Shown here one piece after another: positions 5,909 to 20,402 of a stretch of DNA of 64,000 bases. This DNA is from Paludibacteraceae bacterium (GTDB lineage: Bacteria > Bacteroidota > Bacteroidia > Bacteroidales > Paludibacteraceae): NCBI GenBank assembly GCA_045630805.1, contig JAZQTO010000001.1, forward strand, positions 624 through 64,623, read 5' to 3'. The notes under the pieces are model-generated. The model ran no database searches. It had not been told where the DNA came from and saw nothing but the letters and a program-made list of their open reading frames with translations. A program made the position numbers and the translations under genes. Each line of letters begins with the position of its first letter. Positions within the stretch are counted from its first letter, which is position 1.

Positions 5909-8900
5909 ATGAAAAAGACCTTTCTACTTCTGAGCCTGCTTTTTAGTGTGGCAGTTTCTAGTCTCTATGCGGCTAGTCCAAAAGATGAATTTCGTGCTAC
6001 ATGGTTAGCAACAGTATTTAGTATTGACTGGCCTAAAACGTCAGCGACTACTACAGCCAATCGTACTGCACAGCAAAAAGAATTGACCGATATCTTCGAC
6101 AAGATGAAGGCGGGCAACATGAATGCCGTATGCTTGCAAGTTCGTGGTCGTTCTGATGCATTCTACAAGTCCAGTTATGAGCCATGGGCTGCCGAATTGG
6201 CAGGTAGTCGTGGCAAAGACCCTGGTTATGATCCATTAGCGTTTGCCATAGAGGAAGCGCACAAGCGCGGTATGGAGTTGCACGTATGGGTGAACCCATT
6301 TCGTGTGACGAGTTCGGGCACCATCTCCACAAGTGATAAAGTGTGGCAGAACGCTGGTCAATGGATTATCAAGTATAATAATGGTACTTTTACTGGTCAA
6401 ATTATTGACCCAGGTTATCCTGAGGCACGTGAGTATGTGTTAGATGTGTTGATGGAGATCGTGGAGAACTATGATGTGGATGGTATCTTGATGGACGACT
6501 ATTTCTATCCCTATGGAGGAACAACCACAGAGGATGCTAAGTCCAAGTCCTTACATAAACCTTCCTCTGGTCTTATAGATCAAGACAAAGACGGTTCTAC
6601 CGACGATGATTGGCGCCGCAGCAATGTGGATGATATGATGAAGAAGTTGTATGACCGCATTCAAGCAACCAAACCATGGGTGCGTTTTGGTATGGGCACC
6701 TTTGGTATCTGGACCATGAAATCTGCTGTAGCAAGCGCTTATGGTATCTCGTTGCCAAGTGGTATCACAGGTTTGGATGACTACGAGGAGCAAGCTTGTA
6801 ACCCTGTAGAATGGGTGAAAGGTGGCTATGTGGACTATATCAACCCACAATTGTATTGGCCAACCACATCAACAGGTCAAAGTTACGAAAAACTCGTTAA
6901 ATGGTGGGGACAAGATGTATGTCAACATTTCTCTGATTTACTTCCAGGAAAGCAAAAAGTACACTTCTTCTCTAGCCAATCATGTAGCAGCAATACCGCT
7001 TCTTCAGAGATCATCAAGCAGATTGATCTTAATAGAAAGTACTTGTCTTCAGGCTATACCGGTTCGGTCTTCTACAATACCACAGCCTACTTGAAGATGT
7101 ATAGCGCATTGACTTCGCGCTTTGATTACAAGGCACTTCCGCCAGCTATGGATTGGAAGTCCACCGTTGCTTTAGGTGCTCCTGAGAACTTGACTTTGTC
7201 AGGTACCACCTTGATGTGGTCGCACCCAAGCGCAACACGTTTTACGGTATATGTGTATCCTAAGACTACAACTCTAGAAACTGCCAAGACTAATCCTGCG
7301 TATTTGAAAGGCATCGTGTATGGCAATAGTTATAGTGTGAGTGGAATTGACTTGAACAGTTACAATGTAGCGGTGTATAGCTATGACCGTTTTGGTGTAG
7401 AGCATGCTGCTGCGGTATATGGCGAGGGTTCGACCGATCCAGGCACCAATCCTAATCCAGATACAGGCAAAATCACATGGGAACTGAATGGTGGTGAGGT
7501 AAAGACTGTGACAGTAACTGTGCCAAGTATTTCAGATTTAGAGATGCAATTCAAGAATGATTACAATACCTATTTTGGAACATCTTTAGATGTATCACGT
7601 GATCTTACAGGTTTCTTGTATGCTGGTTGCCCAACCAATGGCGGCAGTAATCTCGTGTATAATATGATGAATGCATCTAACTATGATTGGGCATGGTTGC
7701 GCGACTATATCATAGAAAAGTCTGCAAGCAATACAACAATTCAAGCGGCTTTGCAATCTGGTACTGATGCATATTGGCGATACAGTTTGGTTGCATTCTT
7801 TAGTGCAAGCGCTGGTACTAATTCAGAATATACAGTGGATTTCTCAATCGCAGGTCAGTCTTCCGTATGGGGACCTGTATATCAGACAGCACATGGTGCC
7901 GTGTCATTGCCAACCTATGTCACCAGCACATATACCTTGCCTACCCCTACTCACCCACAAGGATATACTTTCTTAGGTTGGTATGATAATCCTGAGTTTA
8001 CAGGTAGTCCTCTAACCACAATTCCAGCGGGTTGGACAGGAACATTGTATGCAAGATGGGATACAGGTTCTACCGACCCAGTAGATCCAACTAAAGAGGT
8101 CATTTTTTGGGAACTTAACGGCGGACATGTACCCGCTGAAGTGCCTTCTAACTTGGAATTATGGGAGGCATTCAAACCTTATTACAAATCTTATTACAAC
8201 ATTGAGCGATCAGATATGCCTATAGAGAAGGTGGCTACTTTTGCCAATGAGAAGATGCAAGATATCATGACCAACAGCGCATCAGAGTATAAGTGGTTGG
8301 GTGATTATATCCTTACCATTGCTCCTGGTATCTCAGGTGAGAGTGCTTGGCGTTGGCATGTGCATGCGTTCTTCAACTGTAATGACGGAACGGTGAGCGG
8401 CAATCAATTGGTAGCAACCGCTAATTTCTCTGTGGCTGGTCAACCAAGTGAATGGGGCAACGCATATCAGAAAGTACATACTGCTGAGCTACCTAAATAT
8501 GTAACAACTACCTATATTTTACCTAATGCCCTTAAAGAGGGGTTTACTTTTGAGGGTTGGTATGATAATGCGGGGTTTACAGGCTCGGTCTTATCATCGA
8601 TTCCTGCAGGATGGGAAGGAACATTATATGCCAAGTGGGCAGAAGCAAGTACGGAACACCCACAGGTGATTTTTTGGTTCCTAAATGGCGGAACGGTCAA
8701 TGTAGAATTGCCTAAGTATGTGACAGAAGATTATACCTTACCTATACCTACGCGCGCAGGATACGTGTTTGAAGGTTGGTATAGTAATTCTAATTTCACT
8801 AGTTCGGAGATCACATTAATTACAGCAGGATGGGAAGGTTCTTTATATGCCAAATGGACAGAAGAAACACCTGAAGAAGTGATTTATTGGGTACTAAATG

Positions 8901-10846
8901 GTGGTACTGTAAGCGGTACGTTGCCATCATTCGTCACCAGTACTTACACCCTCCCCACCCCTACGCGCGAAGGATATATATTCGCAGGATGGTATGATAA
9001 TCCTAACTTTACAGGCACAGCGCTTACTTCTATTCCTGCGGGATGGGAAGGTACTTTGTACGCCAAATGGACTGCCGAGGAGAATACTGATGATATCAAG
9101 TGGGAACTAAATGGCGGTAGTTACAAAAATGGAACGCTACCAACCTCTGTTTCGAAACGATACACCTTGCCTAAATCATGGGAGCTGAATCCTCCATACA
9201 ATGGTTGTTCGTTTGAAGGTTGGTATGACAATGCTGAGTTTAGTGGTAGCAGTTTGACCCGTATTAATGCGAATTGGAAAGGCACTCTGTATGCTAAATG
9301 GGATTGCTCGGATAGTGATGCAGAAGTGATTTTCTGGTATTTGAATGGAGGAAAAGTTGAAGTGGGTTCTGTGACTATTCCATCGCAAGAGACACTATGG
9401 GAGAATTTCAAATCGGATTATAATAAATATTTCGGAACTAATCTGGATGCCACATTGTCAGGCGCAAGCAATTTCCTATACTCTGGTAGTTACTATTGGA
9501 AAAAGGAAGTAGGTACACTGATGACTGATGCTGATGCCGGTTGGAAATGGTTAGGCGACTATATTATCACTTTGGCTGGTGCTCCGGCTAACAATGACCT
9601 ATGGTGGCGTACACAATTGCACGCATTCTTCAACGCATTGTCTAAATACACATTAGGTGATTATACAGCAGCCAACTATGCTACCGCCGGTCAACCATCC
9701 GCATGGGGACCAGCATATAGTGCAGCACAACCTGTGGAACTGCCTAAGTATGTGGTAGAGACCTATATATTACCTACGCCCGTGCGCGAGGGATACACTT
9801 TCCGCGGATGGTTTGATAACGCCAACTTTGAGGGCTATGTACTGACTTCTATCCCTGCAGGTTGGGAAGGGTCATTATATGCAAAATGGAGTCAAAATGC
9901 ACCTGAGACAGTCATCTTCTGGGTACTTAATGGAGGTTATACTAGAACCACCTTACCAACCTATGTAACAGAGACCTACGTCTTGCCACCGCTTGTTCGA
10001 GATGGCTACATCTTTGCAGGATGGTATGATAATCCAGAGTTTACTGGTAGTCCTATCACAGAGATCCCTGCAGGTTGGGAAGGTACCCTATATGCTAAAT
10101 GGGAAGCAGGATCTAACGAACCAGAGACCACTGCCATCCAATGGGAACTCAATGGTGGACAAGAAAACCCATACAACTGGTCTAGCAAACAAGATATGTG
10201 GCTCAGTTTCCAAGATGACTACCGTGAGTTCTATGGCGTAGAGATCCGCAATTATGCAATAGATAGTTGCGCTAAATGGACATACGATGCATCGGGGGAT
10301 GGTAAGGCTATTACCGAGATGTTGACCTATGAAGAAAAATGGATTTGGCTACGCGAGTATATGGAGAAGGTGGCATATAATGCTAACTTCAACAATGGTC
10401 AGTTGGGTACAGCGGTATTATTGCGCTTTAGCTTGCATGCGTTCTTGAACAACTCACCTGCTAATGATAACACCTATAGCGGTAACCCAGACTACACCTT
10501 GAATGGACAACTTAGTTATTGGTATCTAGATTGGGGCTATACATGGAAAGGTCATTTGCCAACGACATTGACCTCGACATATGTCTTACCTAAACCATAT
10601 AAGGAGGGGCGTGAGTTCTTGGGATGGACCACAGATGCCCAAAGTAGAAATTATATCAATGAATTGCCTGCGGGCTTTATCGGTACGGTGTATGCTATCT
10701 GGGATGTAATGGACGATGTGACTACCTCTGTGGATGTAGTGGGTGCTGCACAACAAGGTCAGATGTATGACCTTTTGGGTCGCCCAGTTGATGAAAACTA
10801 CAAGGGTGTGGTGGTTATTAAGGGCCAAAAATACATGCTAAAATAA
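5909..10846 (+). CDS. Giant secreted multidomain protein: N-terminal GHL10/YngK-like glycoside-hydrolase-like domain, 8 Listeria-Bacteroides (Flg_new) repeats, 4 copies of an unassigned ~120-aa module, and a possible T9SS C-terminal tail
   Basis: Signal peptide MKKTFLLLSLLFSVAVSSLYA. EFRATWLATVFSIDWP matches the GHL10 N-terminus. Eight repeats of YTLPTPTR.GY.F.GWYDN..FTG..L..IPAGWEGTLYAKW. The C-terminal ...MYDLLGRPV...GVVVIKGQKYMLK resembles the distal strands of a T9SS sorting domain. Confidence 0.85.
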   Translation: MKKTFLLLSLLFSVAVSSLYAASPKDEFRATWLATVFSIDWPKTSATTTANRTAQQKELTDIFDKMKAGNMNAVCLQVRGRSDAFYKSSYEPWAAELAGSRGKDPGYDPLAFAIEEAHKRGMELHVWVNPFRVTSSGTISTSDKVWQNAGQWIIKYNNGTFTGQIIDPGYPEAREYVLDVLMEIVENYDVDGILMDDYFYPYGGTTTEDAKSKSLHKPSSGLIDQDKDGSTDDDWRRSNVDDMMKKLYDRIQATKPWVRFGMGTFGIWTMKSAVASAYGISLPSGITGLDDYEEQACNPVEWVKGGYVDYINPQLYWPTTSTGQSYEKLVKWWGQDVCQHFSDLLPGKQKVHFFSSQSCSSNTASSEIIKQIDLNRKYLSSGYTGSVFYNTTAYLKMYSALTSRFDYKALPPAMDWKSTVALGAPENLTLSGTTLMWSHPSATRFTVYVYPKTTTLETAKTNPAYLKGIVYGNSYSVSGIDLNSYNVAVYSYDRFGVEHAAAVYGEGSTDPGTNPNPDTGKITWELNGGEVKTVTVTVPSISDLEMQFKNDYNTYFGTSLDVSRDLTGFLYAGCPTNGGSNLVYNMMNASNYDWAWLRDYIIEKSASNTTIQAALQSGTDAYWRYSLVAFFSASAGTNSEYTVDFSIAGQSSVWGPVYQTAHGAVSLPTYVTSTYTLPTPTHPQGYTFLGWYDNPEFTGSPLTTIPAGWTGTLYARWDTGSTDPVDPTKEVIFWELNGGHVPAEVPSNLELWEAFKPYYKSYYNIERSDMPIEKVATFANEKMQDIMTNSASEYKWLGDYILTIAPGISGESAWRWHVHAFFNCNDGTVSGNQLVATANFSVAGQPSEWGNAYQKVHTAELPKYVTTTYILPNALKEGFTFEGWYDNAGFTGSVLSSIPAGWEGTLYAKWAEASTEHPQVIFWFLNGGTVNVELPKYVTEDYTLPIPTRAGYVFEGWYSNSNFTSSEITLITAGWEGSLYAKWTEETPEEVIYWVLNGGTVSGTLPSFVTSTYTLPTPTREGYIFAGWYDNPNFTGTALTSIPAGWEGTLYAKWTAEENTDDIKWELNGGSYKNGTLPTSVSKRYTLPKSWELNPPYNGCSFEGWYDNAEFSGSSLTRINANWKGTLYAKWDCSDSDAEVIFWYLNGGKVEVGSVTIPSQETLWENFKSDYNKYFGTNLDATLSGASNFLYSGSYYWKKEVGTLMTDADAGWKWLGDYIITLAGAPANNDLWWRTQLHAFFNALSKYTLGDYTAANYATAGQPSAWGPAYSAAQPVELPKYVVETYILPTPVREGYTFRGWFDNANFEGYVLTSIPAGWEGSLYAKWSQNAPETVIFWVLNGGYTRTTLPTYVTETYVLPPLVRDGYIFAGWYDNPEFTGSPITEIPAGWEGTLYAKWEAGSNEPETTAIQWELNGGQENPYNWSSKQDMWLSFQDDYREFYGVEIRNYAIDSCAKWTYDASGDGKAITEMLTYEEKWIWLREYMEKVAYNANFNNGQLGTAVLLRFSLHAFLNNSPANDNTYSGNPDYTLNGQLSYWYLDWGYTWKGHLPTTLTSTYVLPKPYKEGREFLGWTTDAQSRNYINELPAGFIGTVYAIWDVMDDVTTSVDVVGAAQQGQMYDLLGRPVDENYKGVVVIKGQKYMLK

Positions 10847-12417: not shown

Positions 12418-12463
12418 ATCTCTTATGCTTTACACCATACACTCTACACCTTACACTAAACAC

Positions 12464-13225
12464 ATGAAAAAGACCCTTTGGCAAGAGTTTGCCCGCAACA
12501 CATTGATTTCCCTTGGCATCTACGCTGCCTTATTCCTTATATTATATATACTAGAGTGGTTTGTGCCTTCGCTCCGTGGCACCTTGTTGCAATGGCATGA
12601 TTTGGCATTCATTGTAGGTATTCCTGCCAGTGTAGCGGGTACAGCATATGTGCTAACCATTCAAAATCCCAAAAACTATACTGGCTTCGTGGGTGCGATC
12701 ACAATGGCTGCGCTCTTGGCATGGCAGTTTGCATTGTGGGGAAATTGGGATTTGGTGGTATTGCATTTTGCTTTGTTTATACCTTTTCAAACGACCTCGC
12801 TGCTCCGTTGGAGAAAACAAGCTTTGGAGAGCAAGGAGCAAGGAACTAGGAACCAAGATATATTGCCCTCGTGGCTCAATGCCAAGGGCGTGGTTTTCAA
12901 TATTGTATTTACCATTGTCATCGTATTGCTAGATGTGATCTTCGTGAGTTGGATGGCGGGCAATGACTTCGCAGATAATCTACTCAGCAAAGTTATGGGT
13001 GGCTTAATGATTGCTGCATCTATTCTGGCAAATTTCTGGATGATTCACAAGAAGATAGATACATGGATTTGGTGGATAGTCTATACCTTGGCTGGAATGG
13101 TGATTTATGTCTTAACTAGCAATATCTTCACGTTTGTATTGTTCCTTATTACGTTGGTACTCAATATAAAAGCTGCAATTGAGTGGATTAAAGTTGTGCA
13201 AGCCAATAAAGGTGCTGTTTGTTAA
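12464..13225 (+). CDS. pnuC: PnuC-family nicotinamide riboside (or related vitamin) transporter
   Basis: ~250-aa protein with 7-8 TM helices and Trp-rich helices (WQFALWGNWD, TWIWWIVY) as in PnuC. I prefer the ATG at 12464 (MKKTLWQEF). Confidence 0.6.
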   Translation: MKKTLWQEFARNTLISLGIYAALFLILYILEWFVPSLRGTLLQWHDLAFIVGIPASVAGTAYVLTIQNPKNYTGFVGAITMAALLAWQFALWGNWDLVVLHFALFIPFQTTSLLRWRKQALESKEQGTRNQDILPSWLNAKGVVFNIVFTIVIVLLDVIFVSWMAGNDFADNLLSKVMGGLMIAASILANFWMIHKKIDTWIWWIVYTLAGMVIYVLTSNIFTFVLFLITLVLNIKAAIEWIKVVQANKGAVC

Positions 13226-13292
13226 ATTGCTGAAGAAATTCAAAAGACAGAAAAAAAATAATTCAGTTTCACAAACTTTTCGTATTACTTTT

Positions 13293-13327
13293 GCCATTTA
13301 TGCAAAATTCGCATAAATGGCTTTTTC
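13293..13327 (+). terminator. Rho-independent terminator after pnuC
   Basis: Hairpin gccatttatgc-aaaattc-gcataaatggc followed by ttttt. Confidence 0.8.
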
Positions 13328-13442
13328 TTCTCTCTAAACACTAAACAGTAGCGCAGCGTCCACTAAACAAGACTTACCCTTAAAACTTTTAAAACTTCTA
13401 AAACTTTTTTACTCAAAATTTGCACATCCGCAAATTTTGTTG

Positions 13443-13450
13443 TATCTTTG
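13443..13450 (+). promoter_or_regulatory. Bacteroidota -7 promoter box (TATCTTTG) upstream of the CXXX-peptide operon, or of a leader or small RNA
   Basis: 'tgtatctttgcaccc' lies ~410 nt upstream of the precursor ATG. A structured region follows directly. Confidence 0.5.
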
Positions 13451-13500
13451 CACCCGCAATTCCACGCCGGGGATGTCTGCACGTCATCGGCTGGGGTAGC

Positions 13501-13522
13501 AGACATATTTAAAAGGCGTTTA
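13501..13522 (+). repeat. 22-nt direct repeat (agacatatttaaaaRgcgttta), left copy
   Basis: Matches 17901-17922 at 21 of 22 positions. The two copies are exactly 4400 bp apart and bracket the precursor-to-tatC cluster. Confidence 0.7.
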
Positions 13523-13863
13523 TTAGCGCTTTGTTCTGATGCTCTGAAATCTCGCAAATTTCAATCATCTTCGGAACTTAGCAACGATAGATGTCCTACG
13601 GGATATAGATTATCCCTCTTGTGCCTATATTGGTACGCCATTTGCGTATATGTCATATGCGCACACGCGTACCTTAACTATGTAGCACGAGAGTATATTT
13701 ATATTCGGCGTGGGCTTCGCGTTGTCGTTTCAAGATGATGGGCAATGCGAGAGCCTTAGAGCATGGAACGGCAATAGTCGGACTCCACGCTTTTTTTATA
13801 TGCCTAACGATTAACAACAATCCGCATAGTTGGGAGTCCCTGTGCAACAAAAACTTAAGTTTT

Positions 13864-14151
13864 ATGTCTAACAAAAAACAAAACGAAGAACTCCAATCGC
13901 GTAGAGAGTTTTTCAAAAAAGCTGCGAAAGCTGCGCTCCCTGTAGTAGGTGCTGTAGTTCTTTCAAGTATTCCGTTCGTAAAAGCAGAAGCAGCACCAGC
14001 AGGTTGCACATTTTCTGCATGTTCAGGTACATGTACAGGTTCATGTTCGGGTTCATGTTTGTCAGGATGTTTAGGAGGATGTAGCGGCAATGCGTGCAGA
14101 GTGAATTGCACTTACTCTTGTTCTGGAGGATGTGAAAGAGGTAATTTTTAG
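13864..14151 (+). CDS. Tat-signal CXXX-repeat precursor peptide (95 aa)
   Basis: Leader MSNKKQNEELQSRREFFKKAAKAALPVVGAVVLSSIPFVKAEAA contains SRRxFFK, an h-region and AxA. Core: PAGCTFSACSGTCTGSCSGSCLSGCLGGCSGNACRVNCTYSCSGGCERGNF, with 11 Cys mostly at i, i+4. This is the in-frame internal start of ORF 13735..14151. Confidence 0.8.
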   Translation: MSNKKQNEELQSRREFFKKAAKAALPVVGAVVLSSIPFVKAEAAPAGCTFSACSGTCTGSCSGSCLSGCLGGCSGNACRVNCTYSCSGGCERGNF

Positions 14152-14162
14152 TTCTGCAAGAA

Positions 14163-14249
14163 AATAGTATAGGTTGGTTTATCTTATACTATTTAAATGC
14201 TTTCATAACAAGGGGATATGTCAATTTCTTGGCAAATTCCTCTTGTTAT
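14163..14249 (+). promoter_or_regulatory. Two stem-loops in the precursor-maturase spacer (possible attenuator or processing site)
   Basis: Hairpin 1: aatagtatagg/cttatactatt (14163-14193). Hairpin 2: ataacaagggga/tcctcttgttat (14205-14249). Each has one mismatch. Confidence 0.4.
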
Positions 14250-14263
14250 AAACAATTGTTATT

Positions 14264-15490
14264 ATGCTACAATTAAAAATACAAAATAAAGCATGGAAAG
14301 AAGGAATGGCAAAATCCATTACCTTCATTGTAACCAAAGATTGCCAATTAGCATGTAAATATTGCTACCTTGTAGGCAAGAACGAGAAAGAGCGTATGCC
14401 TTTTGAAGTCGCAAAAACCGCTATTGATTATGTGTTAGACAGAGAAAACGATCTAAATTTTGCCTATGAATCAGTCGTGTGGGATTTTATTGGAGGTGAA
14501 CCATTCTTAGAGATAGACCTTATTGATAAGATTTGCGACTATATCAAACAAGAACTTTTCCGTCGCAATCACCATTGGTTTAACTCCTATCGTTTTAATT
14601 TCTCGACCAATGGAATCAACTATGACAGCGAGAAAGTACAACGCTTCATACAGAAGAATAAATCGCATATAAATATAGGTATAACCATTGATGGTACACG
14701 TCGTAAGCATGACCTTAACCGTATATGGAAAGGCGAAGGTCCTGAACGTGGTTCATATGATGATGTTGTTCGTAATATTCCTCTATGGACGAAGCAATTT
14801 CCTAATAGTGGCACAAAAGTAACTATCTCATCTGCTGATATTCCATATATTTGTGAATCAGTTTTGCATTTGTACGAATTAGGTATAAAGGAAGTGAATA
14901 TTAATTGTGTTTTTGAAAATGTATGGAATGAAGGAGATGATTTCCTTTTTGAAGAGCAACTCATGCAATTGGCTGACGCAATCATAGATAAAGATCTCTA
15001 CAAAGATTATGCTTGCTCATTCTTTATGGAAAATATTGGTAAACCAATGGATTGTAAGTATCAAAATCAAAACTGGTGTGGAGCTGGTAAGATGCTATCT
15101 ATTGATGCCGCTGGTAATTTCTATCCTTGTACTCGCTTTGCGCAATATTCTTTGCGCGATAAAGAAGCATGGATTATCGGTAATATACACGATGGCATAG
15201 ACAACAATAAACTGCGTCCATTTCTTACGCTGGACCGTTGTACTCAATCCTTAACCGAGTGCGTAGATTGTGAAGTGGCTGATGGTTGCGCATGGTGTCA
15301 AGGTGAAAACTTTGATGCGGCAAAAACGCATACCGTATATGAACGTGCAACAGCTATTTGCAAAATGCACAAAGCGCGCGTGCGTGCCAATAATTATTAT
15401 TGGAACAAACTCTACCGCAAATTGGAATTAGAAGGTAAACGCGAAGAGTTTGAACAGAATAAGAAACAGTCAAACGATATCATCTGCTAA
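14264..15490 (+). CDS. Radical SAM/SPASM peptide maturase (CXXX-repeat-target type)
   Basis: The rSAM cluster motif is CQLACKYC (CxxxCxxC). C-terminal SPASM cysteines: CGAGKMLSIDAAGNFYPC ... CVDCEVADGCAWC ... C. Confidence 0.9.
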   Translation: MLQLKIQNKAWKEGMAKSITFIVTKDCQLACKYCYLVGKNEKERMPFEVAKTAIDYVLDRENDLNFAYESVVWDFIGGEPFLEIDLIDKICDYIKQELFRRNHHWFNSYRFNFSTNGINYDSEKVQRFIQKNKSHINIGITIDGTRRKHDLNRIWKGEGPERGSYDDVVRNIPLWTKQFPNSGTKVTISSADIPYICESVLHLYELGIKEVNINCVFENVWNEGDDFLFEEQLMQLADAIIDKDLYKDYACSFFMENIGKPMDCKYQNQNWCGAGKMLSIDAAGNFYPCTRFAQYSLRDKEAWIIGNIHDGIDNNKLRPFLTLDRCTQSLTECVDCEVADGCAWCQGENFDAAKTHTVYERATAICKMHKARVRANNYYWNKLYRKLELEGKREEFEQNKKQSNDIIC

Positions 15491-15493
15491 GCC

Positions 15494-16447
15494 ATGAAAC
15501 CATATATGCAATATTTGGTTATCCTATTGGATGACACTAGCGTGGCTTACTGCCATGCCAATAATCCGCTCATAGAGCGAAACTTGATGCCTTTAGAAAC
15601 ATTGCGTAAAGCTATCCTCTTTGGCATGAAACAAAACTTGATGATTCAGTTTGTATATCCCAACTACGAACTCCCTTCGGAATACAACGAACTCATTGAG
15701 ACGATTGACCATGTGAAGATTGGAAGAGATGTGCAAGTGCTTGATTATGTGCCAACCACTTCGGATACCGACAATCTCGTATTGCGCTTGACTATTGCCG
15801 AATTTATCGCGAAGCAATACAACATTGCAGTTCTCTTGCCACAAACTACGCGCCTTAATATTTGCTTGACGGATATTGAATCATTTACTGATGAACAGAT
15901 TGAGGATTACAAAAAAGCATTGGCAACGCTCAATGCCGTTTTGCTCAATCTCTATAAGCAGGCAAAGAATCCACAACTCAATATCCTTACTGACCGTTTG
16001 CAACTCACCGAAATGCACAACTGCGAAGCAGGTGTTGGCAATATTACACTTGCGCCTAATGGCAAGTTCTATCTTTGCCCTGCGTTCTATTACGATGAGC
16101 AAATGGGTATTAGCAATCGCATGAATCATAAAACCAAAGATGCTTCGCGTAGTGTAGGAGATTTAGAGAGAGGGATTGACATTCCAAACAAACAACTCTT
16201 GCAACTTGACCATGCGCCACTTTGTCGTATTTGTGATGCATACCATTGCAATCGCTGTATTTGGCTTAATCAGAAACTTACTTGGGACAGCAATACCCCA
16301 TCACGCCAACAATGTATCATTTCGCACCTTGAGCGTAATGCTGCACGTGACTTGCAATTACAATTAAAAGAGGCGGGGTATCAAGTCACCAACGAGATAA
16401 AAGAAATCACATATTTAGATCCATTTGAAGTAAAGGAGGAATTTTAA
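15494..16447 (+). CDS. SPASM-domain protein lacking the radical-SAM CxxxCxxC (degenerate maturase paralogue)
   Basis: In the N-terminus LLDDTSVAYCHAN only one Cys of the triad remains. SPASM-like cysteines are retained: CEAGVGNITLAPNGKFYLCP ... CRICDAYHCNRCIW ... C. Confidence 0.8.
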   Translation: MKPYMQYLVILLDDTSVAYCHANNPLIERNLMPLETLRKAILFGMKQNLMIQFVYPNYELPSEYNELIETIDHVKIGRDVQVLDYVPTTSDTDNLVLRLTIAEFIAKQYNIAVLLPQTTRLNICLTDIESFTDEQIEDYKKALATLNAVLLNLYKQAKNPQLNILTDRLQLTEMHNCEAGVGNITLAPNGKFYLCPAFYYDEQMGISNRMNHKTKDASRSVGDLERGIDIPNKQLLQLDHAPLCRICDAYHCNRCIWLNQKLTWDSNTPSRQQCIISHLERNAARDLQLQLKEAGYQVTNEIKEITYLDPFEVKEEF

Positions 16448-16448
16448 C

Positions 16449-16742
16449 ATGAAAAAACTTGTAGGACAGGTAACTGTCGAAGAAAAGAACACCATTCAAA
16501 CGCTGTTTGAGCGTCGTAACGGATTGACCGAGTTAGCAAAAATTCTTACTGCGGACAATGTAGAATTATATGAAAAGCTCGTAAAAGACATGGGCGAAAC
16601 AGGCAGCAAGTTCCAACAATGGTGGGACGATATGGCTAAAAAATACAATTGGGAATCTTGCGAAGGCGGAAATTGGGAAATCAATTTTGACACTTGTGAG
16701 ATATACCTCAATTGTAACAATGAGTGCAACTGCAATAAATAA
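16449..16742 (+). CDS. Small (97-aa) acidic, Trp-rich protein of the CXXX-peptide system
   Basis: Starts 1 nt after the preceding stop codon. I recognise no domain. C-terminal sequence is CNNECNCNK. Confidence 0.65.
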
Positions 16743-16750
16743 CAATAACT

Positions 16751-16969
16751 ATGACACTACTAATGATTGGTGCACCTGAGATTATTTTTATAGTCATCAT
16801 CGTGCTATTGCTTTTCGGAGGCAAGAAAATTCCTGAACTAATGAAAGGAATGGGTAAAGGCGTTAAGATGTTCAAACAAGGTATGAACGAGATAGAAGAA
16901 GAGGTTAAACGCCCATCAGACGAACCACAACCTTCTACCGAAGAAGCGCCAAAGAAAGATGGAGAATAA
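16751..16969 (+). CDS. tatA: Twin-arginine translocase subunit TatA/E
   Basis: One N-terminal TM helix followed by [23 protein letters not shown], the TatA hinge and amphipathic-helix signature. Confidence 0.9.
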
Positions 16970-17756
16970 TCACGAAGAGAAAATGACCTTTTGGGAACAT
17001 GTCGAAGTGTTCCGAAAGGTTGTTTTCTGTTGCTTGGCTGTATGGCTCATTTGTGCTATTGCTGCGTTCTGCTTTAAGGATGCACTCTTTAGTGTGCTTT
17101 TTGCTCCCTCACAATCCGACTTTATTCTCTATCGCGGATTGTGTTGGTTGGCAGAGCGATTGTCTATGCCTGCGCTATGCCCAGGAGATTTTTCTATAGA
17201 CTTTATCAATACTGAACTTGCCTCGCAATTCACCACACACCTGCAAGTGGCAGTCATCATGGGTGTGCTGGTGGCATTTCCCTATTTGATCATTCAACTA
17301 TACGGATTTATTGCACCTGCGTTATACACTCAAGAAAAACGCTACTCCATCATGCTGATATTCTTCGGGGTGATATTGTTTGCAATGGGCGTATTGCTCA
17401 ACTATTTTGTGATATTCCCTTTCGCCTTTCGCTTCTTAAGTACTTATCAAGTGCAAGAGGTCGTAGTTAATCAAATCGCGCTAAAGTCGTATATATCAAC
17501 ACTCTTGGTGTTATCATTGCTTATGGGTATATTGTTCGAGATACCGATCATTGCCTATTTCTTGGCAAAATTGGGATTGATTGACAAGCCGCTATTAGTA
17601 CAATATCGCAAACATGCGATAGTCGTATTAGCCATTTTGTCAGCCGTCATTACCCCGACTGCGGATATTTTCACTTTGCTGTTAGTGACAGTACCGCTAT
17701 ACCTGCTTTATGAATTGAGTATTCATATCGTAGCACGAACAAAAGTGAAGGAATAA
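16959..17756 (+). CDS. tatC: Twin-arginine translocase subunit TatC
   Basis: 265 aa with 6 TM helices. N-terminal [12 protein letters not shown] resembles the TatC HL.ELR motif. Overlaps tatA by 11 nt. Confidence 0.88.
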
Positions 17757-17922: not shown

Positions 17923-17996
17923 GAAGGTTCCACGCTTTTTCTATATTTATACCAACGGGGTGTTTGGAGCCAACTTCCCACAAAACATTAATAACA

Positions 17997-20402
17997 ATGA
18001 AGAAGATTATTACATTCATTTTCCTTGCTCTTGTAGCAACAACCTTACTAGCTGGCAACAACGACCTCCTGTTCAGCATTAATACTGATGAGAAACCTTA
18101 TACGGCAAAAGTAGTTTATAATGATTCTATAGATGGAGGTTATTTTGGTAAAATTGTTATACCTTCGAGTGGCCTTTTTAATATTGATGGAAAGATTGAA
18201 TCGGTAAAAATCAATTGTATTGGATCAGAGGCGTTTAAAGGATGTGAAAATCTTAAATCAATAAGAATTCCCAATGGTGTTACACACATAGGAAGTAATG
18301 CTTTTGAAGGGTGTTCGTCTCTTAAATCAATCAATATCCCCAGTAGTGTAATGTACATTGATGCGGATGCTGTGATGTTGGAATCGGATATTATGAAAAT
18401 TATAATTAAAGCCCGTAATGAAAACATTGTCCAAAATATATTGTCAAATCCTTTTACATACTGTAGTTCTTTATTTTCGATTAAAGTAGCCAAAAATAAT
18501 AACATATATGATAGTCGCGATAATTGTAATGCAATAATATTAACAACTAGAAACAAACTTATTGTTGGTTGTAAAAACACCATTATTCCCAATAGTGTAA
18601 CTGAAATAGGACAGAGTGCTTTTGAAGGCTGTTCTGCACTCAAATCCATTACTATTCCAAATAGTGTAACTGAGATAGGAGGCGAGGCCTTTAAAGGTTG
18701 TTCTTCACTCGAATCTATTACTATTCCCAATAGTGTAACTGAGATAGGAGAGTATGCTTTTGAAGGCTGTTCTTCACTTGTATCCATTGCTATTCCTAAT
18801 GGTGTAACAGAGATTGGGGGCAGTGCTTTTGAAGGTTGTTCTTCACTCGAATCTATTACTATTCCCAATAGTGTAACTGAGATAGTATACGAAACATTTA
18901 AGGGTTGTTCTTCGCTTGAATCCATTACTATTCCTAATAGTGTAACTGAGATAGGGTCCAGTGCTTTTGAAGGGTGCTCCTTAAAAAAAGTAGTTTGTGA
19001 ATCTGTAAATGTACCTAAATTATCTAACTGGGTTGAAGTGTTTGGCACTAAAGAAGAAATGTCTAACATCACCTTATACGTTCCTAGTAAATCATTGTGG
19101 AAATACAGATTATCTCGTGATTGGAATCGCTTTGGTAAAATAAGGACAATAGAAGGAGAACCTACAATGGGATTTGCTGTTATCATAGTTGGTCTATTCT
19201 CACTCATATTCTTTGTGGTTATTTTTATTCGTCATGAACTAAAAACATCAGCAGGTTATGGATATAGAATCGTGAATCATAGGGCAAAAGACATACATGG
19301 AGATCCTAGTAAAATGCAGACACTGGTAGAATATATTCAAAGTAGATTTAATTATGAAAAGTATAAAACTATTGTAAAAAAACATGCAACGAAAGGTATC
19401 AATATTAAGATATCTAAAGGAGGGTTGTTTAAAGCATTATTGGGGTTGCACACCACAATAAAACTCAGAATGAAAATAGATGAAACCAATCTTGTGGGCA
19501 TTAAAGTCAGAGGACGTTCTTTCTTATGGCTTCTTTGGTATATTTCATTGGATTTATTTTTATATGTGATGATAGAGAGAATGCAACTAATATATATATT
19601 CTTATTGATTCCCATTTGCTTAATAGCTCTCCAAATTACAGGAAAAATTAAACAAGTTCGACTAAAAAAATACGCACTTGCTATTATTGCAAACGAATTT
19701 GAAAATCCATCTAATCCAGAGCCAAAATTTAAGTCAGAGAATCACAACTCTGAAAAAACAAAAAAATCTCAAACAAAGACCTCAATAAAAGATACGGTTT
19801 CTTTTATAGATAAAATCAAGGATCTGTTTATAGCATTAAAATCTTCATACAACGAACAGTTGGAAAAATTAAAAGAAGAACGGGCACAAGAGCAACTTAG
19901 ACAGCAACAAGCACAAGCTAAACAGCATACGCAAAGTAGTGGAACCGCTCAAATAGCGGACATGAGAACGGTAGACTATTTGGCAAACGAAATTTATGTT
20001 GCCTTTACAAACGAAGGGTATGATGTAAAAATTGTGCCACGTGACACACTTCTCTCCGCCATAAAAGGTGAGAAAGGCAAGTATATCCGTATTTCCAAAG
20101 GAGGTTTCTTCGCTGCGTTATTCGGAGTACGCAAAGCGCTCTTAGTAGAAATTTTTACCAATAGTGCAGGTAAAATTTTAGCAGAAGTAGCATGTAACTA
20201 TAATGTTTGGCCATTTCTGCTTATTGTTGCAGAAGGGTTGACTGCCATCTCTATGTGTTCAATTGGCAATGACATAGGATATGGTTGGGCGATAGCTAGT
20301 GTAATAATATTTGGAAACATCTTGATACCAATACATGTTCGTACCCTATTAGAAAATATTACTGCCTACAAAAAAGCACGTACCATAATTTTTGGAAAAT
20401 GA
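17997..20402 (+). CDS. BspA-type leucine-rich-repeat (LRR_5) surface protein with a multi-TM, internally duplicated C-terminal region
   Basis: Signal peptide MKKIITFIFLALVATTLLAG. At least 6 tandem 23-aa units IPNSVTEIG..AFEGCSSL.SIT. Hydrophobic helices start at nt 19167. Duplicated motif I(K/R)ISKGG(L/F)F.AL.G. Gln-rich coiled coil. The TTG start at 17964 in the ORF track is less likely. Confidence 0.85.
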   Translation: MKKIITFIFLALVATTLLAGNNDLLFSINTDEKPYTAKVVYNDSIDGGYFGKIVIPSSGLFNIDGKIESVKINCIGSEAFKGCENLKSIRIPNGVTHIGSNAFEGCSSLKSINIPSSVMYIDADAVMLESDIMKIIIKARNENIVQNILSNPFTYCSSLFSIKVAKNNNIYDSRDNCNAIILTTRNKLIVGCKNTIIPNSVTEIGQSAFEGCSALKSITIPNSVTEIGGEAFKGCSSLESITIPNSVTEIGEYAFEGCSSLVSIAIPNGVTEIGGSAFEGCSSLESITIPNSVTEIVYETFKGCSSLESITIPNSVTEIGSSAFEGCSLKKVVCESVNVPKLSNWVEVFGTKEEMSNITLYVPSKSLWKYRLSRDWNRFGKIRTIEGEPTMGFAVIIVGLFSLIFFVVIFIRHELKTSAGYGYRIVNHRAKDIHGDPSKMQTLVEYIQSRFNYEKYKTIVKKHATKGINIKISKGGLFKALLGLHTTIKLRMKIDETNLVGIKVRGRSFLWLLWYISLDLFLYVMIERMQLIYIFLLIPICLIALQITGKIKQVRLKKYALAIIANEFENPSNPEPKFKSENHNSEKTKKSQTKTSIKDTVSFIDKIKDLFIALKSSYNEQLEKLKEERAQEQLRQQQAQAKQHTQSSGTAQIADMRTVDYLANEIYVAFTNEGYDVKIVPRDTLLSAIKGEKGKYIRISKGGFFAALFGVRKALLVEIFTNSAGKILAEVACNYNVWPFLLIVAEGLTAISMCSIGNDIGYGWAIASVIIFGNILIPIHVRTLLENITAYKKARTIIFGK

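Follow-up and report, generated by a model that had tools for sequence, protein, structure and literature searches.

Organization of the locus

The subject of this account is a small gene, and the operon that it heads, in a 64,000-nucleotide (nt) stretch of DNA from a Paludibacteraceae bacterium (GenBank assembly GCA_045630805.1, contig JAZQTO010000001.1, positions 624 to 64,623 of the forward strand; "the window" is this whole stretch, and coordinates refer to it unless a locus handle precedes them). The gene specifies 95 amino acids (aa): a twin-arginine translocation (Tat) signal peptide followed by a core in which cysteine recurs with a period of four. Five genes on the same strand follow, almost gapless: a radical S-adenosylmethionine (rSAM) maturase with a SPASM domain, two system-specific proteins, and the Tat translocase subunits TatA and TatC. 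The favoured reading, held with rather more belief than doubt, is that the gene encodes the rSAM-modified "CXXX-repeat" precursor of a product akin to RiPPs, the peptides that are synthesized ribosomally and modified post-translationally, that its leader is a genuine Tat signal, and that the product would be exported by the operon's own TatAC. The features of the operon are these, the parts of the precursor being read directly from its translation:

13864..14151 (+): precursor gene, CXXX-repeat radical SAM target peptide, 95 aa plus stop (TIGR04117, 45.7 bits, E=5e-12)
13864..13992 (+): twin-arginine signal peptide and leader, aa 1-43
Start of the leader (+): n-region, MSNKKQNEELQ
13897-13917 (+): S-R-R-E-F-F-K motif (S12-R13-R14-E15-F16-F17-K18)
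Between SRREFFK and the c-region (+): h-region, AALPVVGAVVLSSIPFV, 17 uncharged residues
End of the leader (+): c-region, K40-A41-E42-A43, with AxA, then A44
13993..14148 (+): core peptide (aa 44-95) with 11 Cys, spaced 4 apart except for two spacings of 5
14134-14148 (+): tail ERGNF after the last Cys, with an aromatic end
14264..15490 (+): rSAM/SPASM maturase, CXXX-repeat target family, 408 aa (TIGR04115, 623.7 bits against a cut-off of 350)
15494..16447 (+): "CXXX repeat peptide maturase", 317 aa (TIGR04119, 211.6 against 150)
16449..16742 (+): "CXXX repeat peptide modification system protein", 97 aa (TIGR04116, 99.3 against 50)
16751..16969 (+): tatA, 72 aa (TIGR01411, 64.3 against 53.9; PF02416)
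16959..17756 (+): tatC, 265 aa (TIGR00945, 154.5 against 132.7; PF00902)

The precursor gene ends 112 nt upstream of the maturase gene; tatA and tatC follow the system genes at gaps of 0-10 nt, and tatC overlaps tatA by 11 nt. A note made earlier on this DNA had taken the small gene for a RiPP-style precursor, and an rSAM/SPASM maturase with two system-specific partners immediately downstream bears that out. It had also called the use of a Tat signal as such a leader unusual. The combination is not new: judged by its family matches, the operon is the CXXX-repeat system already curated, and defined in silico, by NCBIfam/TIGRFAM (TIGR04115/04116/04117/04119), and NCBI and JGI name the homologues of the precursor "Cys-Xaa-Xaa-Xaa repeat radical SAM target protein". 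TIGR04115, TIGR04119 and TIGR04116 are all matched at scores well beyond the cut-offs; in layout the precursor agrees with TIGR04117, a paralogue-type model on Firmicute sequences (Syntroph_Cxxx), and it scores 45.7 bits, under its trusted cut-off of 50. Searches of the full-text literature found no description of the tatAC linkage, of lipoprotein-type precursors or of any chemistry of the system, and no paper on RiPPs with Tat leaders.

The precursor peptide

Translation of 13864-14151 (+) gives MSNKKQNEELQSRREFFKKAAKAALPVVGAVVLSSIPFVKAEAAPAGC...ERGNF*, exactly the peptide that the earlier note quoted, and with it the SRREFFK motif, the AxA and the 11-Cys core in near-CxxxC register that were claimed for it. 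Successive cysteines of the core are spaced 5, 4, 4, 4, 4, 4, 5, 4, 4 and 4 residues apart (8/10 = 4), mainly with Gly, Ser and Thr between them; the core is 22% Cys, its spacer residues are small, and its single Glu stands after the last Cys. No other open reading frame (ORF) of the 64-kb window has a periodic-Cys core, and by a simple rule-based scan no other has a Tat-like N-terminus.

The predicted signal is of the signal peptidase I type: a lipobox is absent from the window peptide, in which P-A-G-C sits 36 residues past the RR motif and behind the AxA c-region. Cleavage is likely at A41-E42-A43|A44, which would release a 52-aa product beginning APAGC. An AxA-type site is thus present, as proposed, but the cut more probably falls at AEA|A than after AEAA, where it had been placed, because the latter puts Pro at +1, a residue that signal peptidase I disfavours in that position.

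The precursor matches no Pfam family at E<0.01. Its leader alone (44 aa) is enough for a match to TIGR04117, in the N-terminal part of the model (E=0.0018), and for a weak one to a Tat-target model; since it matches a Firmicute model unaided, the Tat-type leader is probably shared beyond the Bacteroidales. PF27846 is precomputed on many homologues of the precursor. The exact window sequence has no database record, and a 95% identical homologue (P0002) was taken in its place.

The maturation proteins

The match of the maturase to TIGR04115 is full-length (1-359/359), and its Pfam matches are Radical_SAM and Fer4_12. The CX3CX2C motif lies at residues 27-34 (invariant C27, C31, C34), and the full C-terminal SPASM set, of the pattern CX9-15GX4C ... 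CX2CX5CX3C ... C, is likewise invariant (C272...G...C289; C333, C336, C342, C345, C366). Among other peptide-modifying families, its strongest resemblance is to PapB (NF047865; E=3.7e-56, 190.7 bits), followed by CcpM (E=4e-37), the SCIFF maturases (TIGR03974; E=1e-33, 116.5 bits) and QhpD (E=3.7e-26); sulfatase maturases (E=3e-13) and cyclophane-forming families are also weakly matched. CteB (PDB 5wgg) is its only match in the PDB (E=8.5e-25). The alignment begins at CteB residue 92 and runs to residue 443, so the window maturase lacks the N-terminal RiPP recognition element (RRE) domain.

The TIGR04119 protein has invariant cysteines of SPASM type (C177, C195, C244, C247, C252, C255, C274) and no CX3CX2C; in its N-terminal half only C20-H21 is invariant. 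Its C-terminal half aligns with maturase residues 211-345 (hhalign, E=3e-5). The AlphaFold2 model is poor (mean predicted local distance difference test, pLDDT, 56), and SPASM homology is all that is established. It is probably a degenerate rSAM paralogue that has lost the SAM cluster and serves as an Fe-S partner or in substrate handling.

The TIGR04116 protein belongs to a family with 79% mean column identity, and AlphaFold2 confidently predicts (pLDDT 90) that it folds into a beta-strand, a long helical hairpin and a beta-hairpin. The best Foldseek match to this fold in the PDB has E=1.0, with no neighbour at E<1, and the family profile finds nothing below E=0.5 among PDB sequences. A PqqD-type RRE and a NapD/TorD-type Tat chaperone were considered and rejected, there being no sequence or fold match to either. 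It can reasonably be put forward as a candidate leader-binding or chaperone subunit; leader binding is reasonable because the protein and the leader are both highly conserved. Its C-terminus (16710-16739, +) carries an extra Cys-rich tail that is found in the window's clade and a few others; most members are without it.

Homologues number 6561 for TIGR04116 and 5391 for TIGR04119. The order precursor(s)-rSAM-TIGR04119-TIGR04116-tatA-tatC is common to Paludibacteraceae, Prevotella/Xylanibacter, Muribaculaceae, Alistipes and others.

Conservation of the precursor family

Three surveys, of decreasing circularity, bear on the generality of this design: 1) a word-seeded search that yielded 992 homologues, the figures below being from the 120 listed; 2) loci fetched through the rSAM enzyme only (80 of the 323 found, from Paludibacteraceae, Prevotella/Xylanibacter, Muribaculaceae, Alistipes, Rikenellaceae and others); 3) an exhaustive HMMER scan of 1.8 billion representatives, without a word index, which returned 595 precursor clusters (50% identity) at E<=1e-3, the best 146 of which were analysed.

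In the first survey the RR motif is present in 119/120 homologues, nearly always at residue 12-13; 1104 of about 1230 Cys-Cys intervals are 4, and the number of cysteines ranges from 7 to 16. In the second, RRxFF heads 108/116 of the periodic-Cys ORFs; the eight without it are fragments at contig ends, antisense or unrelated ORFs, and two that are possibly leaderless. In the third, [S/T]RRxFFK occurs in 145/146 representatives, RR motif and periodic core occur together in 138/146, and 88.8% of Cys spacings are 4. The Tat motif is accordingly real and conserved, and the check that had been suggested, whether RR motif and Cys register go together among homologous precursors, comes out in favour (108/116 and 138/146).

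Two periodic-Cys ORFs adjoin a maturase gene and have no recognisable RR leader (L043:5756-6000 and L080:5538-5920); they may be leaderless precursors, mis-started genes or pseudogenes.

The repeat consensus across the family is C-x-G-[S/G/T]. Proline is nearly absent from the cores, Asp and Glu together make up less than 5%, and D or E occurs in only 18% of 3992 CxxxC units. Compared pairwise, leaders are on average 59% identical and cores 34% (22% if the aligned cysteines are left out); among very close relatives, pairs of rSAM enzymes that are 91-92% identical go with precursors only about 65% identical. A conserved leader joined to a hypervariable core is the usual signature of RiPPs. The tail after the last Cys has a median length of 6 aa; F, Y or W is the final residue in 43% of family precursors and is among the last three in 67%, against a core background of 7%.

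A second class of precursor has a true lipobox after the RR signal, by the strict rule that [LVI][ASTVI][GAS]C directly follow the h-region: 15/108 precursors, in 15/75 loci, have it. These are long (median 213 aa) and very rich in cysteine (median 36, up to 47), acidic residues follow the lipobox, and a short precursor often adjoins. Examples of about 210-250 aa with 36-47 Cys are:

L001:5217-5966
L002:5329-5970
L007:4184-4888
L014:4360-5070
L062:1790, and others

The long precursors are probably Tat-exported lipoproteins and may be surface-exposed. Their existence argues for a cell-associated product (in the periplasm or at the surface) and not only for a diffusible bacteriocin.

Linkage to the Tat translocase

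With at least 1.4 kb of sequence beyond TIGR04116, 63 loci are informative about what follows it. In 61/63 the next genes are tatA and tatC (median gap 27 nt); they belong to the operon. In the two loci without tatAC the operon ends after TIGR04116, and the precursors still carry RR signals.

The leader has all the looks of a classical Tat signal: [S/T]-R-R-x-F-[L/F]-K, an h-region of moderate hydrophobicity and a c-region that holds AxA and a basic residue of the "Sec-avoidance" kind are shared with classical Tat substrates, and relatives with an RR signal and a lipobox resemble Tat lipoproteins. The cargo is another matter. Classical substrates are folded cofactor enzymes, while what follows this signal is an unstructured-looking, low-complexity peptide of about 50 aa; and, unlike the case of classical substrates, the translocase genes lie inside the biosynthetic operon. 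Why should so small a peptide travel by Tat? The route would suit it because rSAM chemistry is cytoplasmic and Sec presumably cannot thread a polycyclic peptide.

A structured leader RNA upstream of the operon

The 640 nt upstream of the precursor gene are better conserved between distant loci than the peptide core itself. They contain the following, helices being supported by covariation:

13443..13450 (+): Bacteroidetes-type -7 box, TAtcTTTG (direct reading)
13482..13810 (+): conserved structured 5' leader RNA, about 330 nt (nhmmer, covariation)
13533-13547/13756-13769 (+): helix P1
13550-13556/13746-13752 (+): helix H3
13581-13586/13720-13725 (+): helix H4
13593-13596/13712-13715 (+): helix H5
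13729-13731/13740-13742 (+): helix H6
13762-13767/13784-13789 (+): stem of an intrinsic terminator, T-run to about 13799, ending the leader RNA

The transcript probably begins about 7 nt downstream of the -7 box. TAnnTTTG is found within 130 nt upstream of a GGCGT anchor in 141/169 copies of the element (10/169 in random windows), most commonly at a distance of 60-79 nt.

By nhmmer there is one copy of the leader RNA in the window and one in 66/80 of the related loci, always on the operon strand and upstream of the first precursor, usually 45-90 nt before its ATG. Five nested helices, two of them long-range, are supported when 50 non-redundant copies are aligned. Paired cells make up 92.5% of these helices, as against 41-50% when the partners are slid by 1-3 columns; cells with double substitutions number 247, as against 35-64 in the slid controls; and none of the shuffles (0/500) attains these values. 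One helix of 7 bp shows 100% pairing and has compensatory changes at each of its seven positions. Pairing in the terminator stem is 78.7% (54% or less in controls), and the 5' arm of this stem overlaps P1, the closing helix, in its 3' strand: an antiterminator/terminator layout.

In these respects (a multi-helix, covarying RNA and a terminator with its 5' arm held within the closing helix) the element is like riboswitch and attenuator leaders; it differs in having no match in Rfam and in the great diversity of the genes behind it. Rfam 15 yields no match to the leader RNA: cmscan of 13100-14400 at E<=1 gives three weak, chance-level matches, all outside the element. A metagenome scan for its core finds at least 120 contigs, and the figures that follow are for the matches listed: 102/121 are near full length, the ATG typically lies 110-130 nt past the core motif, and a CXXX precursor is downstream in 8 of about 110 copies with enough downstream sequence. 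Behind the others lie genes for BspA-like leucine-rich repeat (LRR) proteins, lipoproteins, UpxY/NusG-like proteins, DUF6140, small helix-turn-helix proteins, sugar-modifying enzymes and others, surface, capsule and accessory genes among them.

Three other identities were considered for the element. An operon-specific riboswitch is rejected on that count of 8 in about 110. The inverted repeats, in DNA, of an invertible promoter or a miniature inverted-repeat transposable element are unlikely: there are strand-specific G-U wobbles (U-G in 37/50 sequences at one pair, for example), and several nested inner helices covary. The ops pause element of B. fragilis capsule leaders, which is about 40 bp long (PMC11685472), is different in size and sequence and is rejected. 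No paper describing the leader RNA was found in the full-text literature. It is a candidate for a new class of portable regulatory leader in the Bacteroidales, and the most novel thing met in this analysis.

A second RNA feature lies in the spacer between precursor and maturase genes:

14162-14194 (within 14156-14200) and 14205-14249 (+): two strong hairpins (minimum free energy -35.7 kcal/mol, z=-5.8)

The corresponding spacers of 40 related loci are unusually structured too, with a median z=-3.6. Probably the hairpins stabilise the RNA or act as a partial terminator, and so raise the ratio of precursor to enzyme; such a function fits the usual RiPP arrangement, in which precursor transcript exceeds enzyme transcript.

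How the system may work

The operon would be transcribed from its own promoter through the structured leader RNA and its terminator, and with the hairpins 3' of the precursor gene, more precursor than enzyme would be made. In the cytoplasm the TIGR04115 enzyme, with the TIGR04119 and TIGR04116 proteins, would modify the periodic cysteines, most plausibly by forming thioethers between Cys sulfur and a carbon of a neighbouring small residue, so that a ladder of small rings results. The cross-linked peptide, no longer fit for Sec, would leave through the operon's TatA and TatC, and signal peptidase I would cut at AEA|A, leaving a peptide of about 52 aa in the periplasm; in relatives with a lipobox the product would stay lipid-anchored. 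Of all this, the genes present and their families, the conserved RR motif and Cys period, the tatAC linkage, a constant leader beside a variable core and the affinity of the maturase to thioether formers are shown; how the cysteines are bridged and to which residues, what TIGR04116 and TIGR04119 do, Tat-dependent export, the cleavage site and any biological role are inferred.

Thioether bridging is favoured because the maturase is closest to PapB and CteB, and comparison with the three best-matched systems shows how far the analogy goes. PapB and its substrate PapA (freyrasin, a ranthipeptide) are the closest characterised enzyme family: both enzymes are rSAM/SPASM proteins, and PapA, like the window peptide, has a fixed short Cys period, and takes on many small rings as is proposed here. 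But PapA uses C-x3-D/E where the i+4 residue here is the next Cys, and it has no Tat signal. CteB, which acts on SCIFF (six-Cys-in-forty-five) peptides, is the only solved structure with significant similarity, covering rSAM core and SPASM domain; it has an N-terminal RRE (residues 1 to about 90) that the window maturase is without, and SCIFF peptides are not Tat-secreted. QhpD offers a parallel in cell biology: it too is a cytoplasmic rSAM/SPASM enzyme that cross-links cysteines of a small polypeptide, QhpC (the gamma subunit of quinohemoprotein amine dehydrogenase), that works in the periplasm. QhpC differs in having few cysteines, linked to Asp or Glu and without a period, and in becoming an enzyme subunit; it is exported by a different route. 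The system at hand would seem, then, to work as the ranthipeptide and SCIFF systems do, while scoring below the cut-offs of their families.

Several points weigh against this interpretation and should be set down together. 1) The maturase is far below the cut-offs for PapB (190.7 vs 340) and SCIFF (116.5 vs 425). 2) PapB-type linkage of Cys to Asp or Glu cannot be general, because D or E is present in only 18% of the units; either Gly, Ser or Thr would have to serve as acceptor or the chemistry differs. 3) No RRE is found in the maturase, and TIGR04116 has neither a PqqD-like nor any other fold match in the PDB. 4) At about 50 aa the cargo is unusually small for Tat, and tatAC are not adjacent in 2/63 loci. 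5) Searches of the full-text literature turned up no paper, whether experimental or descriptive, on the CXXX-repeat system, so the proposed modification is guessed from homology.

The second point also counts for the strongest alternative, according to which the rSAM enzymes modify the periodic cysteines without bridging them by thioethers, Tat exporting the product all the same. Formylglycine or thioaldehyde formation (as in anaerobic sulfatase maturases), Cys-Cys or C-C linkage and an undescribed reaction are among the possibilities. SPASM enzymes do catalyse many different reactions; the maturase has its weak matches to anaerobic sulfatase maturases and cyclophane-forming families, D/E acceptors are rare in the core, and the SPASM-only TIGR04119 protein is an unusual component that hints at non-standard chemistry. 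Set against this, thioether formers are by far the strongest matches (3.7e-56 for PapB, 4e-37 for CcpM and 1e-33 for SCIFF, as against 3e-13 for sulfatase maturase), and the sole PDB match is to CteB. Modification of another kind is on balance unlikely, though it is the alternative that survives best.

Less probable again is that the peptide is a metallothionein-like or Fe-S/metal-binding Tat cargo, its free thiolates taking up metal in the cytoplasm and the neighbouring Fe-S proteins loading or assembling the cofactor instead of cross-linking the peptide. A core that is one-fifth cysteine and otherwise made of small residues has something of that appearance, cofactor-loaded proteins are what Tat classically carries, the TIGR04119 protein has Fe-S-binding motifs only and no SAM cluster, and TIGR04116 in the window's clade ends in its Cys-rich tail. 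But a complete enzyme of the rSAM peptide-maturase family is invariably present, Pfam provides no metallothionein or ferredoxin family match, and the strict C-x3-C register, the variable number of repeats (7-16; up to about 47 in the lipoprotein forms) and the hypervariable core are typical of RiPP substrates. The earlier note had offered two products, a metal or Fe-S cluster-binding peptide and a multiply cross-linked one: the second, as a thioether ladder, is favoured by the resemblance of the maturase to PapB and CteB, and the first finds no positive evidence beside a dedicated rSAM maturase that is always there.

That the ORF is spurious, or that translation starts at the in-frame ATG at 13735 (no stop intervenes in the window, and a 138-aa protein without an N-terminal signal would result), which had been named as grounds for refutation, can safely be dismissed: the RR motif is kept at residue 12-13 among homologues, the 43-codon in-frame extension upstream is open in only 10/106 relatives, stops interrupting it in 96/106, gene callers assign 95 aa to the near-identical copies P0001 and P0002 (95-96% identical to the window precursor), and 13735 itself belongs to the conserved leader RNA, where it falls in the H6 loop and lies upstream of the terminator.

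Implications

The CXXX-repeat system is very common in gut and rumen Bacteroidales. The boldest form of the proposal, that this is the first class of RiPP with a Tat signal for a leader, that the operon's TatAC are dedicated to it, that the enzyme trio cross-links every fourth residue, and that an undescribed and widespread leader RNA switches the operon, is tentative, and held with more doubt than belief. If it is true, a rigid polycyclic peptide is delivered to the periplasm of gut Bacteroidales or, in the lipobox variants, to their cell surface, and the leader RNA would also control many surface and accessory genes. RiPP maturation would then be joined to Tat export of a small, pre-modified peptide, two fields that rarely meet, and it would be explained why some anaerobes keep tatAC inside a biosynthetic operon. 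One can think of the product as a new scaffold: regularly cross-linked and highly variable peptides in the periplasm or at the surface of abundant gut bacteria. A cultured carrier of the system, Xylanibacter rarus strain 109 (locus L080), makes the question testable.

Genomic neighbourhood

13293-13321: terminator closing a pnuC-like gene

This clean terminator upstream implies that the operon has its own control region. Further upstream in the window (including 12425-13225) lie the pnuC-like gene and rpsF-rpsR-rplI; on the contig of P0002 (L201:1-9142) the corresponding genes are thrS and nadA. Such different neighbourhoods in near-identical relatives suggest local rearrangement or mobility of the cassette. 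A downstream LRR gene is common to both contigs: in the window (17964-20402, +) it encodes an 812-aa protein with leucine-rich BspA-like repeats, and its L201 homologue matches PF13306 (LRR_5). On the other side, at 5909-10846 (+), is the gene for a 1645-aa secreted protein with many repeats of about 70-80 aa (…GYTFxGWYDNxxFTGxxxTxIPAGWxGTLYAKW), so that the operon is flanked by large repeat proteins.

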